From a virus (taxonomy: Duplodnaviria; Heunggongvirae; Uroviricota; Caudoviricetes), in the IMG/VR virus record IMGVR_UViG_2534681662_000018: 33,372 nt of DNA; one strand, written 5' to 3'. Made by a program: the position numbers and the translations under genes. The notes under the pieces were generated by a model that worked only from the letters and a program-made list of their open reading frames with translations, did no database searches and had not been told where the DNA came from. Shown here piece after piece: positions 1,261 to 33,372 of the stretch. Positions within the stretch are counted from its first letter, which is position 1; every line of letters begins with the position of its first letter.

Positions 1261-1432
1261 GTATTGATTCACTTGAAGTACGAAAAAAAACGGGAGGACA
1301 TTGGATTATTCGGGATCTGATGGGATTAGATTTGGTGGGGCTTGCAAGCCTGTAGCGCAAATTTTAGTCGTTAATCAATGAAACGCGAAAGATAGTAAAA
1401 AATTGCTTTTGTTTCATTGAAAATACGAAAAA
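1261..1432 (+). repeat. Mu left end (attL) with three MuA end-binding repeats (L1 about 1266-1287, L2 about 1370-1391, L3 about 1409-1430)
   Basis: Three copies of the roughly 22-bp motif ending in CGAAA(A) are visible: TGATTCACTTGAAGTACGAAAA, AATCAATGAAACGCGAAAG, TTTCATTGAAAATACGAAAA. Terminal TG at 1261-1262. Confidence 0.85.
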
Positions 1433-1597
1433 CAAAAACACTGCAAATCATTTCAATAACAGCTTCAAAAAACGTTCAAAACCGATAACAACCAAGCTGT
1501 CACCAAATGACTCATATCACAAATCAGCTTATGCCGTTTAGGTATGTTACATGTGTGATTATGTGAGGTGAAGTATGTTTTAGCTGGTTCATGGTTG

Positions 1598-2188
1598 TTA
1601 TACGGCTTTTTTTACCTCCTGTGGTTCCTGTGAAGGTACTACAACACTTTCCTGTTCATGAATCCCATACTTTGACAAAATCTCTTTGCGTTTTTCTTCA
1701 GGTAATGCATCTAGCATCATCAACGTCTGAATACTTTGCTGTGAAAATCCTATAAAGCTGTAAAGTTTCTGTTCATTAAATACAAGAGGCATTAACGCCA
1801 ACAACCCCCCTTTACTTAAAAGTTTCAGTGCCTTGCGTGCTTCATCTGGTTCCAGCTCTTCAATCATATTGATTAAGGTTGTGGTTAATTTGTTTATCAG
1901 TTCCGAAGAATCCTGTTTCTCATTGGCTTGAGCACCAGTATCCGGTGTGGATAACCCCAAGTGCGCAATAACTTGCTCTCGTTCTTTGGTGGGCATAGAC
2001 ATCACATCGTATTCAACAGCTTTCCCCCCCTTGACACCTTCCTTTTTTCGCTTCGTCCAGCCTTGAACATTTGCTCGATAGTGAACACCAGCAACAGATC
2101 CAGGCATACCATCAGCAGCCATAATTTCTTGCGGCGAACACCAAATTGACTTTTCAGTATTATCTTTTTCTATAAAGTTACTTTTCAA
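1598..2188 (-). CDS. c: Mu repressor c (196 aa)
   Basis: Minus-strand ORF; translation MKSNFIEKDNTEKSIWCSPQEIMAADGMPGS... recognised as Mu repressor. Leftmost gene, divergent from ner. Confidence 0.9.
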   Translation of the reverse strand: MKSNFIEKDNTEKSIWCSPQEIMAADGMPGSVAGVHYRANVQGWTKRKKEGVKGGKAVEYDVMSMPTKEREQVIAHLGLSTPDTGAQANEKQDSSELINKLTTTLINMIEELEPDEARKALKLLSKGGLLALMPLVFNEQKLYSFIGFSQQSIQTLMMLDALPEEKRKEILSKYGIHEQESVVVPSQEPQEVKKAV

Positions 2189-2357
2189 AATTTAAACCCC
2201 TTAATTATCAATGTGTTAACCAGTAACCAAAGGAATTTACTAAAAATCAGCTTTACAAAAAGCTTTTCAGTAATTATCTTTTTAGCAAGCTAGCTAAGTT
2301 TTTACACTTAGTTAAATTGCTAACTTTATAGATTACAAAACTTAGGAGGGTTTTTAA
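2189..2357. promoter_or_regulatory. Early regulatory region between c and ner (operators O1-O3, divergent promoters Pe/Pc, transpositional enhancer/IAS)
   Basis: AT-rich 169-bp divergent intergenic region between repressor and ner, with RBS AGGAGGG before the ner ATG. Individual operator positions not resolved; placement from Mu biology. Confidence 0.6.
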
Positions 2358-2585
2358 ATGTGTTCCAACGAAAAGGCCCGTGATTGGCATCGTGCGGATG
2401 TGATTGCGGGACTTAAGAAAAGAAAGCTCTCTTTATCAGCTCTTTCCCGGCAGTTTGGTTATGCGCCAACTACATTAGCTAATGCGCTAGAACGACACTG
2501 GCCAAAGGGTGAGCAGATTATTGCTAACGCCTTAGAAACTAAACCGGAAGTAATCTGGCCTAGCCGATATCAAGCAGGTGAATAA
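2358..2585 (+). CDS. ner: Ner, negative regulator of early transcription (75 aa)
   Basis: ORF 2358..2585, translation [39 protein letters not shown]... with HTH; first gene downstream of early promoter. Confidence 0.9.
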
Positions 2586-30801: not shown

Positions 30802-31235
30802 CCGATTTAGCCATTATCTGGACGAACGGACGCGGCGATATTGCACAGGATGGCATTGATATGCTGACCGACGACAGTCTGACGACCGATGTGACAATCT
30901 CCCTGTTTACCGACCGGCGCGCGCTGGATTCTGACACGCTGCCGGATGGTTCAGATGATCGCCGTGGATGGTGGGGGGACAGTTACCGCGACCGCCCCAT
31001 CGGTTCGCGGTTGTGGCTGTTATCACGTGAAAAAGCCACACCGGATACGCTGGAACGCGCCAGAGGGTATGCCGAAGAGGCGCTGGAATGGCTGAAAACA
31101 GCGGGCCGGGTGAGTGCGATTAACGTCAGAGCGGAACAGTTACATCAGGGCTGGTTATACCTCTACATTGCACTGACATTACCGGATGGTTCCGTTATTC
31201 CTTATGAGTTTAAAGCAGCATTTAACGGGGTTTAA
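30798..31235 (+). CDS. Baseplate wedge protein, small (145 aa)
   Basis: ORF 30798..31235, 4-nt overlap with the spike gene. Confidence 0.7.
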   Translation: MTDLAIIWTNGRGDIAQDGIDMLTDDSLTTDVTISLFTDRRALDSDTLPDGSDDRRGWWGDSYRDRPIGSRLWLLSREKATPDTLERARGYAEEALEWLKTAGRVSAINVRAEQLHQGWLYLYIALTLPDGSVIPYEFKAAFNGV

Positions 31236-32318
31236 ATGGCTTATTCACCACCGACATTATCATCGCTGATTGCCCGTACAGAACAGAATATTGAACAGCG
31301 CCTGCCGGGTAGCTGGCCTCAGGCCCGTGAAAAAACGCTGAGTGCCATTGCTTATGCTCAGGCGGGCCTTGCTGCCGGTTTTCACGAGCATATTTCATGG
31401 GTTGGACGGCAGATTATCCCGTCGACAGCAGATGAAGATGAGTTGCTGGAGCACTGCCGGTTCTGGGGCGTGCGCCGCAAACAGGCGACAGCCGCCAGCG
31501 GCCCGCTGACTGTCACCACATCGGCAGCGACCACCATTCCTGCCGGTACACGCTGGCAGCGTGCTGATGGTGTGGTTTACAGCCTGGCTGATGCCATTGT
31601 GATTGACCGTGCAGGAACGACGGAAATTACCGTTACCGCACTGGCTGCCGGTGAGGCAGGAAATACCGGTGAGAATACCCTTTTAACGTTGATCACCCCG
31701 GTTGCCAGTGTTGTTTCCGATGCCATCACTGTAAAAGGGTTTTCCGGTGGAGCTGATATTGAGAGTGCAGCGGAGCTGCTGTCACGGCTGGAATATCGTG
31801 TCCAGTATCCTCCGTTCGGCGGTAATCAGTTTGATTATGTTCGCTGGGCACGTGAAGTCAGCGGCGTTACCCGTGCCTGGTCTTTTCCGACATGGAAAGG
31901 CGGTGGCACAGTCGGGGTGACGTTTGTTATGGATAACCGGAGCAATATTTTTCCACAACCGGCAGATGTGGAACGCGTGGCGGATTATATCGCCGGTCAT
32001 ACTGACCCGATAACCGGCCTGATTGTCGGACAGCCTGATGGTGTAAATGTCACGGTATTTGCACCAAAGGCAAAGCCGGTAAATCCACGGATTTATATAT
32101 CGCCGAAGACAGCCGAACTGAAACAGGCTATTACTCACGCCATTAATACCATGTTTTTTAATGAGGTGACGCCGGGCGGTGCACTTGCCCCCTCCCGTAT
32201 TATCCGTGCGGTGGCAGGTGTTACCGGTCTGGATGATTTTGAAGTGCGTTTCCCGACAGACATCCAGCGTTCGGAGAATACGGAACTGTTAACACCGGGG
32301 ACAATTGAATGGCTGTAA
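31236..32318 (+). CDS. Baseplate J-like wedge protein (360 aa)
   Basis: ORF 31236..32318 starting immediately after the preceding stop; typical size for baseplate J family. Confidence 0.78.
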   Translation: MAYSPPTLSSLIARTEQNIEQRLPGSWPQAREKTLSAIAYAQAGLAAGFHEHISWVGRQIIPSTADEDELLEHCRFWGVRRKQATAASGPLTVTTSAATTIPAGTRWQRADGVVYSLADAIVIDRAGTTEITVTALAAGEAGNTGENTLLTLITPVASVVSDAITVKGFSGGADIESAAELLSRLEYRVQYPPFGGNQFDYVRWAREVSGVTRAWSFPTWKGGGTVGVTFVMDNRSNIFPQPADVERVADYIAGHTDPITGLIVGQPDGVNVTVFAPKAKPVNPRIYISPKTAELKQAITHAINTMFFNEVTPGGALAPSRIIRAVAGVTGLDDFEVRFPTDIQRSENTELLTPGTIEWL

Positions 32319-32851
32319 CACCCTGGCAGACGGCCTTTCTGCAATTACTGCCGTCAGGGCTTGCCTGGAATAAAAGCCCCGACAGCAAATTATCTGCGCT
32401 GGCGCAGGCCATCAGCGACGTGATTACCACTGCGGCGGATGATGCGCGGCAAATGCTGCGGGAGCGTTTCCCGTCCACATCCCGCTGGTATCTGGGTGAG
32501 TGGGAATCATTTCTGGGGTTGCCGGACTGTACCAGCGAAAACGGCACCCTGTCCGAACGCCGGCGGGCTGCCGCGAATAAAATGCGTATGACCGGCAATC
32601 TGAGTCGGCGCTTTTATGAATGGCTGGCTGCGCAGTACGGTTTTACCGTCAGGCTGACGGATTCCACAGAAGGCCAGTGGGTTACGCAGGTCAATATTTA
32701 CGGTATTAAAAATTATCGCAACGCAACGGTGCTGGATAATGTTCTGACGCCGTTACGTGTTTATGAATCGGGTGCGCTGGAATGTTTACTGGAGAAATAT
32801 AAACCCGCGCATCAGATTTATAAATTTGTTTACCATGACGGAGATAACTAA
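32309..32851 (+). CDS. Baseplate/tail protein (180 aa)
   Basis: ORF 32309..32851, overlaps both neighbours. Confidence 0.7.
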   Translation: MAVTPWQTAFLQLLPSGLAWNKSPDSKLSALAQAISDVITTAADDARQMLRERFPSTSRWYLGEWESFLGLPDCTSENGTLSERRRAAANKMRMTGNLSRRFYEWLAAQYGFTVRLTDSTEGQWVTQVNIYGIKNYRNATVLDNVLTPLRVYESGALECLLEKYKPAHQIYKFVYHDGDN

Positions 32852-33372
32852 TGTTTTATATTGATAACGACAGCGGCGTAACCGTCATGCCGCCCGTATC
32901 CGCCCAGCGTAGTGCTATCGTTCGCTGGTTTTCAGAAGGTGACGGGAATAATGCTATCACATGGCCCGGCATGGACTGGTTTAATATTGTGCAGGCGGAG
33001 TTATTAAACACGCTGAAAGAAGCCGGTATTCAACCGGATAAAACAAAATTAAACCAGCTTGCACTGTCCATTAAAGCCATTATGAGCAATAACGCGCTGC
33101 TGATAAAAAATAACCTCAGCGAAATTAAAACTGCCGGGGCATCAGCACAGCGTACAGCACGTGAAAATCTGGATATCTGGGATGCCAGCCTGAACAAAAA
33201 AGGCCTCGTTCAGCTAACCAGTGCCACTGACAGCCCCAGTGAAACGCTGGCAGCCACCGCAAAAGCGGTGAAAATTGCGATGGATAATGCCAATGCCCGT
33301 CTGGCAAAAGAGCGGAACGGAGCAGATATTCCCAATAAACCGCTGTTTATCCAAAACCTCGGTTTGCAGGAA
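32851..33372 (+). CDS. S: Tail fibre protein S, N-terminal constant part (partial, runs off window end)
   Basis: ATG at 32851 overlapping the preceding TAA (TAATG); open to the window end (174 codons). Confidence 0.75.
   Translation, partial: MFYIDNDSGVTVMPPVSAQRSAIVRWFSEGDGNNAITWPGMDWFNIVQAELLNTLKEAGIQPDKTKLNQLALSIKAIMSNNALLIKNNLSEIKTAGASAQRTARENLDIWDASLNKKGLVQLTSATDSPSETLAATAKAVKIAMDNANARLAKERNGADIPNKPLFIQNLGLQE

Follow-up and report, generated by a model that had tools for sequence, protein, structure and literature searches.

We analyzed a 33,372-nt stretch of DNA (IMG/VR record IMGVR_UViG_2534681662_000018; hereafter the window) and found that its prophage part, positions 1260–33372 (32,113 bases), very probably represents a natural prophage of the Mu family (Muvirus), of which it holds the left 32.1 kb and which transposed into an already pseudogenic yeeJ locus of Escherichia coli. 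The element is an ordinary mosaic member of a well-populated group already present in public assemblies. An original prediction, made from the sequence alone, had described an apparently complete Mu-type phage with canonical gene order, starting at position 1261. A collinear alignment with an E-value of 0 bore out the type and the order, and the element does span to the end of the window, but its true start is at 1260 (TGTATTG...) and the word "complete" is not supported: the window stops at Mu position 31979 of 36,717 (87%), where its final base is also that of the left gix site. The claim that every gene block is present was not confirmed either, as the window holds neither the variable portion of S nor U, U', S', gin, com, mom or attR.

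Alignment to Mu and the left end

The best match of the window in a megablast search of 50,697 phage records was Escherichia phage Mu (NC_000929 / AF083977; E = 0). In megablast and blastn, the ends of the prophage part, 1260 and 33372, fell on Mu 1 and Mu 31979, with five collinear pieces of the same orientation between them; a finer blastn run was made on the full Mu and D108 records.

Window 1260–5798, Mu 1–4539: 98.68% identity, gap-free
Window 6113–6158, a 46-bp stub of Mu: 89% identity
Window 6401–8300, Mu 5047–6946: 96.6% identity
Window 8838–9200, Mu 7489–7851: 81% identity
Window 9589–33372, Mu 8239–31979: 96.9% identity, 9 gaps

The pieces cover 30,632 of the 32,113 prophage bases (95.4%). 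Identity is 96.97% within them, and over the prophage part as a whole 92.5% of bases agree with Mu; for D108, the values were 96.72% in the aligned part and 89.6% of all prophage bases. The separation from Mu amounts to 745 substitutions and nine indels in the aligned blocks and ~1.5 kb of unaligned sequence. The whole-window alignment contained no inverted, rearranged or transposed blocks relative to Mu, and this comparison with Mu and D108, proposed in the original prediction as its own check, was collinear and upheld the Mu-type order. Large insertions were correctly predicted to be absent: over the shared span, the net length difference is +134 bp and the biggest single indel +33 bp.

When 54 Mu proteins were searched with tblastn, those from c to gp48 were all matched full-length and stop-free, except for four. 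Mu gp6, gp7, gp12 and gp15 had no match in the window, and weaker matches were obtained for gp13 (91% over residues 7–60) and gp14 (52% over 81 residues). The open reading frames (ORFs) had been described as intact-looking, and indeed all 45 plus-strand genes that we delimited translate cleanly; they overlap (ATGA and similar) at 18 junctions, in agreement with the predicted translational coupling. A search of the whole window against Rfam at the gathering thresholds gave no match.

The element has the Muvirus traits of a 5'-TG end with L1–L3, the c/ner–A–B order, the Mor–C cascade and collinear late genes. The ICTV species criterion for Muvirus mu is a nucleotide identity of at least 95% over the genome; here identity is 97.0% in the aligned part and 92.5% over all bases, with the right 13% of the genome outside the window. 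D108, filed as Muvirus mu in collection records, stands at 89.6% against the window. Novelty had been expected only in small differences. This generally holds, but ~1.5 kb of the prophage (4.6%) consists of nonhomologous early-region cassettes and goes beyond single-nucleotide polymorphisms (SNPs). The ~3% of substitutions together with cassette swaps in genes 6, 7, 12, 14 and 15 is the usual mosaic pattern of the group, and the real differences from Mu are, apart from a few late-region blocks, restricted to the semi-essential early region.

Relatives of the element are readily found, 44 of the 5,426 complete E. coli genomes (strain W included) carrying one that is 95–99% identical. The late-region alleles recur in prophages at seven or more chromosomal sites, and those prophages that extend past the G segment continue to gin and the right end. 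In L005–L012 (NCBI E. coli-type assemblies GCA_045080665, GCA_044912815, GCA_044906255, GCA_044020415 and others), the sequence of window 22309–33372 is 99.76–99.91% identical, and the 76-amino-acid (aa) gp38, 499-aa L and 377-aa P are shared, as is, in all but two, the 691-aa tape measure; they differ in that each sits at its own chromosomal site and several have a deletion in gin–com–mom. The junction of this 652-bp deletion lies at ~14640–14650 in L005, L006, L007, L009 and L010, outside the window.

The gap-free first piece of the alignment holds the left end, the immunity region and the transposition genes:

1260–1431, plus strand: attL, with terminal 5'-TG and MuA sites L1 (1270–1286), L2 (1375–1391) and L3 (1415–1431)
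1598–2188, minus strand: c repressor, 196 aa, 98.5–99.4% identical to Mu c
2189–2357, no strand: operator, internal activation sequence and Pe–Pc region, intergenic between c and ner, aligning to Mu
2358–2585, plus strand: ner, 100% aa identity to Mu Ner
2587–4578, plus strand: A, DDE transposase MuA, 663 aa, 98.5% identity over the full length, 10 substitutions
4617–5555, plus strand: B, AAA+ target-capture ATPase MuB, 312 aa, 99.4% identity, 2 substitutions
5571–5798, plus strand: kil, 100% identity

The MuA-site consensus YMYNWRAARYRCGAAAR was matched three times in attL and four times in the whole window, compared with 0.37 matches expected by chance, and Mu 1–360 differs by two SNPs only, neither of them within L1–L3. 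A Pe-like promoter (TTTACA-17-TATCTT) is present at 2252–2280. For the identical genes of the source contig, Pfam domains HTH_Tnp_Mu, DDE_2, Mu-transpos_C and Phage-MuB_C are recorded. Immunity is of the Mu type: window 1260–2750 is 95.6–100% identical to Mu, and D108, SfMu and PhiR68_1 gave no match over window 1751–2750. The alignment ruled out a D108-type identity, finding no counterpart of D108 c, ner or the N-terminus of A.

The 4,539 gap-free bases (window 1260–5798) hold 60 SNPs relative to Mu, which include two clusters. Twelve fall within 123 bp of the operator/enhancer (Mu 905–1027, window 2164–2286), the first two being inside the c ORF, and ~20 within Mu 3173–3253 (window 4432–4512), where they produce 6 of the 10 MuA substitutions, at residues 617–642. 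Among natural Mu-immune prophages, the operator region is comparably variable, with 11–13 substitutions over window 2140–2360. The repressor has Asp9 and Arg47, as in three natural prophages (L004, L016 and L020), and reference Mu alone has Asn9 and Gln47; residue 47 of the reference repressor is thus unlike that of all four natural prophages compared, the one in the window included. We take R47Q to be the cts62 laboratory allele, with which N9/Q47 of the reference is consistent, and on that assumption the window repressor has the wild-type residue. A look through the literature yielded nothing usable on the cts62 substitution, and the evidence for the assignment is the comparison with natural prophages.

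Host site and early-region cassettes

The prophage is preceded by bacterial DNA, in which we distinguished the following features:

1–1259, plus strand: E. coli chromosomal flank, a yeeJ-type locus for an inverse-autotransporter adhesin (5' part), pseudogene
1–558: LysM-type ORF fragment
555–1130: IAT_beta ORF fragment, ended by CAG to TAG at 1128 (codon 1126–1128)
1255–1259, no strand: presumed 5-bp target GCCGT, left of the Mu end

The flank is 99.8% identical to >100 E. coli chromosomes, in which it is annotated with a LysM domain or an inverse autotransporter beta domain, and its context is a string of LysM, IAT_beta and Ig-like genes downstream of mtfA and tRNA-Asn. From the K-12 map, we take this locus to be yeeJ. 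The TAG at 1128 shortens the beta-domain fragment to 191 aa, and as exactly this fragment is found in many assemblies with an uninterrupted site, the nonsense mutation is older than the Mu insertion; the LysM/beta split is also seen in strain Ecol_AZ155. Empty sites in L003 and L023–L025 read ...GCAGCCGT followed directly by TATGATCTGG, and in comparison with them the left junction is precise. The presumed target GCCGT agrees with the consensus of Mu targets, N-Y-(G/C)-R-N, and would be expected in a second copy at the right end, followed by TATGATCTGG. We found this left junction in 0 of the 5,426 complete E. coli genomes, and the exact yeeJ–Mu left junction gave 0 matches among the contigs of species-representative genomes, a set that does not include the source genome.

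Between kil and the middle operon, Mu-like genes alternate with replaced ones:

5803–6084, plus strand: gp6', 93 aa, replacing Mu gene 6 and nonhomologous to gp6 of Mu and D108
6126–6395, plus strand: gene 7, D108-type allele, 89 aa, phrog_2230
6416–8317, plus strand: gp8, gp9, gam (7155–7679) and gp11, 93–99% aa identity to Mu
8307–9002, plus strand: gp12'-13, 231 aa, with ~175 N-terminal aa that bear no relation to Mu gp12 and continue in frame into a Cys-rich, gp13-like C-terminus
9004–9369, plus strand: gp14', 121 aa, with 52% identity to Mu gp14 over 81 aa and a C-terminus that differs, phrog_6075
9272–9511, minus strand: gp15', 79 aa, antisense, placed and oriented like Mu gene 15 and of unrelated sequence, phrog_32893 (E 7e-46)
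9192–9221, minus strand: terminator-like hairpin, 13 bp and a T run, downstream of gp15' and inside gp14' (–20.5 kcal/mol, z = –4.6)

At gene 6, the replaced stretch covers 5799–6112, and neither blastn nor tblastn matched gp6' to Mu or D108. The protein belongs to phrog_1518 (E 9e-38); among isolated phages, its closest homologues are early-region genes of the Pseudomonas transposable phages of D3112, DMS3 and JBD type (37–50% identical) and a gene of a Mu-like element carried within an Stx2c phage (55%), and none were found in Mu, D108 or SfMu or in the Mu-like phages of Yersinia. This distribution suggests cassette exchange across genera of transposable phages. The allele itself is shared with an E. 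coli prophage (OZ040490), to which window 5751–6000 is 100% identical. The PHROG label "host nuclease inhibitor" is inherited and unverified, some of the Pseudomonas matches overlapping two features of which one is so labelled, and we did not use it.

The gene 7 stretch (6113–6400) is part of a longer segment, window 6113–8300, that matches D108 4719–6906 at 96% identity; similarity to Mu resumes at 6401. In the gene 12 replacement, no Mu DNA match was found over 8301–8830, and the match to gp13 residues 7–60 (91%) lies in the same frame as gp12'. A single family, phrog_6418, spans residues 2–232 of the 232-aa query (E 6e-165), and no Pfam family was matched, Phage_Mu_Gp12 included. The 231-aa gene is also called in L018–L022, and both it and gp6' are present in the complete genome NZ_OZ040490.1 and each in several Logan, ENA and NCBI contigs. 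The gp14'/gp15' cassette is rare and was found in 0 of the 5,426 complete E. coli genomes; the exact gp15' protein occurs in 20 contigs, each time at the same position, and had a single match, 38% identical, in the phage collection.

All five early variants belong to existing PHROG families (four of them at E-values from 1e-46 to 6e-165). Searches for Pfam, NCBIfam and PADLOC families gave nothing significant for the five replaced genes, the sole match being a sub-threshold one to RraB for gp7, and the best match of gp6', gp12'-13 and gp15' to Protein Data Bank (PDB) sequences had an E-value of 0.0026 over short unrelated stretches. Single-sequence AlphaFold2 models predicted a two-helix hairpin for gp15' (predicted local distance difference test score, pLDDT, 80) and a small alpha/beta fold for gp6' (pLDDT 69), and neither model had a Foldseek match at E < 0.8 in BFVD or PDB. 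It is conceivable, if rather improbable, that the swapped cassettes are functional accessory genes and not neutral alleles, acting in superinfection exclusion, defense or counter-defense; the semi-essential region of Mu would then be a swap site for host-interaction genes. The strongest candidate for such a role would be gp15'. No promoter was identified for it, but the gene has a GGAG 5 nt ahead of its ATG, and with its own Shine–Dalgarno sequence and strong terminator it could be expressed from a repressed prophage.

The end of the window at the left gix site

The final 26 bases of the window (33347–33372, plus strand) are the left gix site, the Gin crossover, with the sequence TTATCCAAAACCTCGGTTTGCAGGAA, and the window stops on its last base. 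In the Mu annotation, the G-segment boundary is at 31966. The site differs from that of Mu by a single A to G substitution (TTTGCAGGAA), and the same change is found in the right gix of PhiR68_1. In SfMu, a one-base change in one of the two inverted repeats has been described as possibly affecting inversion (PMC4406740).

The 4.7 kb of Mu outside the window comprise the G segment, gin, com/mom and attR. The source contig (AQDT01000039.1 of GCA_000355595.1; 106,458 bp) is 100% identical over window 1–19511, and with record positions equal to window positions plus 73,084, window 33372 falls on record position 106,456, by extrapolation 2 nt short of the contig end. As the contig ends ~2 nt past the left gix, the apparent truncation is due to the assembly having broken within the inverted repeat of gix. 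Most likely the culture that was sequenced held the G segment in either orientation. The break at gix is of the kind that an invertible segment typically leaves in assemblies. The remainder of the prophage (G segment, gin, with or without com–mom, and attR) is probably on other contigs. A complete prophage in the genome is possible, and its right junction would read gin–(com–mom)–R3–R2–R1–... with TTCA, GCCGT and TATGATCTGGTGG in succession; on the strength of contig AQDT01000039.1, the prophage should not be labelled complete.

Several observations weigh against this reading of a natural Mu-family prophage. The substitutions cluster in the operator/enhancer region and the MuA C-terminus; as gin, mom and the right end, 5-bp duplication included, lie outside the window, completeness and mobility are presumptive; the direct comparison with the source contig covered 19.5 kb, the contig-end coordinate being extrapolated; and an assembly break at gix could have other causes. 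One could ask, given an immunity region, A and B that are 98.7% identical to the reference and indel-free, whether the element is laboratory Mu (such as a Mu cts62 derivative or mini-Mu) brought in by contamination or strain engineering. The alignment refutes this, as at least 99.9% identity to AF083977 would be needed and the element stands 745 substitutions, nine indels and ~1.5 kb of unaligned sequence apart; together with the natural-prophage residues Arg47 and Asp9 in place of Gln47 and Asn9, late alleles 99.9% identical to wild E. coli assemblies and the presence of the same insertion in the independent read set SRR446750, it makes a laboratory origin next to impossible. A defective remnant whose true end is the left gix, produced perhaps when Gin mediated a deletion or rearrangement, and which lacks the G segment, gin, mom and attR would account for nothing being visible past the site and for the break falling exactly on a recombination site. 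We nevertheless hold it very improbable, as no host DNA follows the left gix and the contig just stops ~2 nt on, all 45 plus-strand genes checked upstream are intact with no sign of decay, and each close relative extending past the G segment continues to gin and the right end.

A further alternative concerns the part beyond the window: the prophage may be whole at both ends but carry a 652-bp deletion, by which com is lost and gin, cut short, runs into the middle of mom; it would then be without Mom modification and perhaps without Gin activity. Such a deletion is present in 5 of the 7 late-region relatives that extend past the G segment (L005, L006, L007, L009 and L010; 99.8–99.9% identical) and is common to different host sites, with D108 position 35613 joined to 36266, a gin of 171 aa and no com or mom calls. 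The different chromosomal sites and the presence of both G orientations indicate that this mom-less lineage has apparently kept spreading. On the other hand, the equally close L008 and L011 retain com and mom, and the left gix of the window has CCTCGG as in the mom-positive relatives, the deletion lineage having CCTTGG. The early region of the window is also a different mosaic, so its linkage to the deletion is uncertain, and the contig break at gix suggests ongoing inversion, although the deletion lineage, too, has both G orientations. We consider the deletion a real but minority possibility for what remains, on balance, a natural Mu-family prophage.

Middle and late genes and comparison with known phages

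Downstream of the early cassettes, the gene complement follows that of Mu:

9586–10520, plus strand: gemA and mor, 92% and 99% aa identity, ATGA overlap
10526–10546, plus strand: early-operon terminator after mor, 8-bp GC-rich stem and T7, matching the annotated D108 terminator
10598–11735, plus strand: middle operon with gp18, gp19, gp20 and the late activator C (11313–11735), 97–99% aa identity
11730–11756, plus strand: terminator hairpin after C (–16.1 kcal/mol, z = –5.1), at the annotated D108 position
11830–12917, plus strand: lysis genes, with the endolysin lys (11830–12345) and the Rz-like spanin gp23 (12329–12715), 99% identity
12696–12917, plus strand: embedded LysC/Rz1-like ORF, with a LysC Pfam call on the source contig
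From 12874, plus strand: gp24–gp27, including the small terminase (13666–14241), 97–100% aa identity, full length
14249–15904, plus strand: gp28, large terminase, 97–100% aa identity, full length
15904–17442, plus strand: gp29, portal, 97–100% aa identity, full length
17423–18742, plus strand: gp30, 97–100% aa identity, full length
18739–19209, plus strand: G, 97–100% aa identity, full length
19210–19405, no strand: G–I intergenic region with the strong gyrase site, cut-site equivalent 19229/19230
From 19406, plus strand: I, protease/scaffold, with an internal Z start at ~19940, 97% identity
20488–21405, plus strand: T, major head protein, 99% identity
21408–21445, plus strand: terminator hairpin after T (–18.4 kcal/mol, z = –5.5), annotated in D108
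21472–32851, plus strand: tail and baseplate genes gp35, gp36, gp37, gp38 (76 aa), L (sheath, 499 aa), M (tube), gp41, gp42 (tape measure, 691 aa), N, P (377 aa) and gp45–gp48, 77–100% aa identity, clean ORFs
32851–33372, plus strand: constant N-terminal part of tail-fiber gene S, 174 codons, 97.7% identical to Mu S residues 1–174, cut by the window end

The start of gemA is ambiguous, either ATT at 9583 (183 aa; Mu-equivalent and used on the source contig) or ATG at 9586 (182 aa; used on other contigs). The two activators, Mor and C, are each 99% identical to those of Mu at the aa level. Terminators had been predicted at their expected places, and hairpins do follow mor, C and T, folding at z-scores of –4.0 to –5.5. 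The gyrase site was placed by adding an offset of 1350 to the Mu annotation (17879–17880); the surroundings of the cut site are identical, with six SNPs in 211 bp. The nine late indels relative to Mu are located in gp38 (+33 and +1 nt), L (–3, +3 and +12), gp42 (–1, +1 and +3) and P (–6), and all are in frame or compensated except the +1 near the 3' end of gp38, which alters the C-terminal end only. Blocks divergent from Mu were found at 22751–23750, 25751–26500, 26751–27000 and 29501–29750 (gp38/L, tape measure and P).

Judged by this conservation, the element should work like Mu, for which the following steps are established; its activity, inducibility and completeness are inferred. The c repressor would keep the early promoter Pe shut at the O1–O3 operators, and upon derepression Ner, MuA and MuB would be made. 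MuA is expected to assemble on L1–L3, the R1–R3 sites (not seen here) and the operator-overlapping enhancer, with MuB delivering target DNA, and replicative transposition would amplify the genome with the aid of the central strong gyrase site. Mor would then switch on the middle operon and C the lys, I and P late operons, and the DNA would be packaged by a headful mechanism from the left end.

The textbook phage Mu thus has close natural relatives in wild E. coli, and the variation among them sits in a few early cassettes and in the sheath, tape-measure and baseplate-hub genes. As a discovery, the finding matters little. Mu, D108, SfMu and the Yersinia Mu-like phages have been described as collinear genomes that differ in the same early region and a few tail genes (PMC4406740, PMC10434027).

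With Mu, the element shares gene order, the attL sites, the c/ner/operator immunity, A, B, kil, gam, gemA, mor and C, the lysis, head, tail and baseplate genes and the strong gyrase site. It differs from Mu in having unrelated sequence in place of genes 6, 12 and 15, a gene 7 of D108 type, a gene 14 product of 52% identity, gp12' joined to gp13, a gp38 of 76 instead of 67 aa, changes of +4 aa in L, +1 aa in gp42 and –2 aa in P, and D9/R47 in place of N9/Q47 in the repressor. D108 (NC_013594) has the same gene order and gene 7 allele and a late region of 97.1% identity, but nothing in the window corresponds to its heteroimmune c, ner and A N-terminus (D108 1–1466 is unmatched or only 79% identical), and genes 6, 12, 14 and 15 differ. 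The prophage of E. coli 30602_1#64 (NZ_OZ040490.1, by pspG) shares the Mu-type immunity, the gp6' allele and the 231-aa gp12'-13; it differs in having an additional DUF5420 gene, another gene 14/15 region, additional DNA that separates gp27 from gp28 and a sheath of the Mu type (tail region 95%), and in lacking gene 19. Finally, Shigella phage SfMu and Escherichia phage PhiR68_1 are collinear Muvirus genomes, 96–97% identical in most of the late region, and PhiR68_1 also shares the tape-measure block 25751–26500, whereas their immunity regions and genes 12–15 are different and SfMu has its specific genes 36/37 (PMC4406740).

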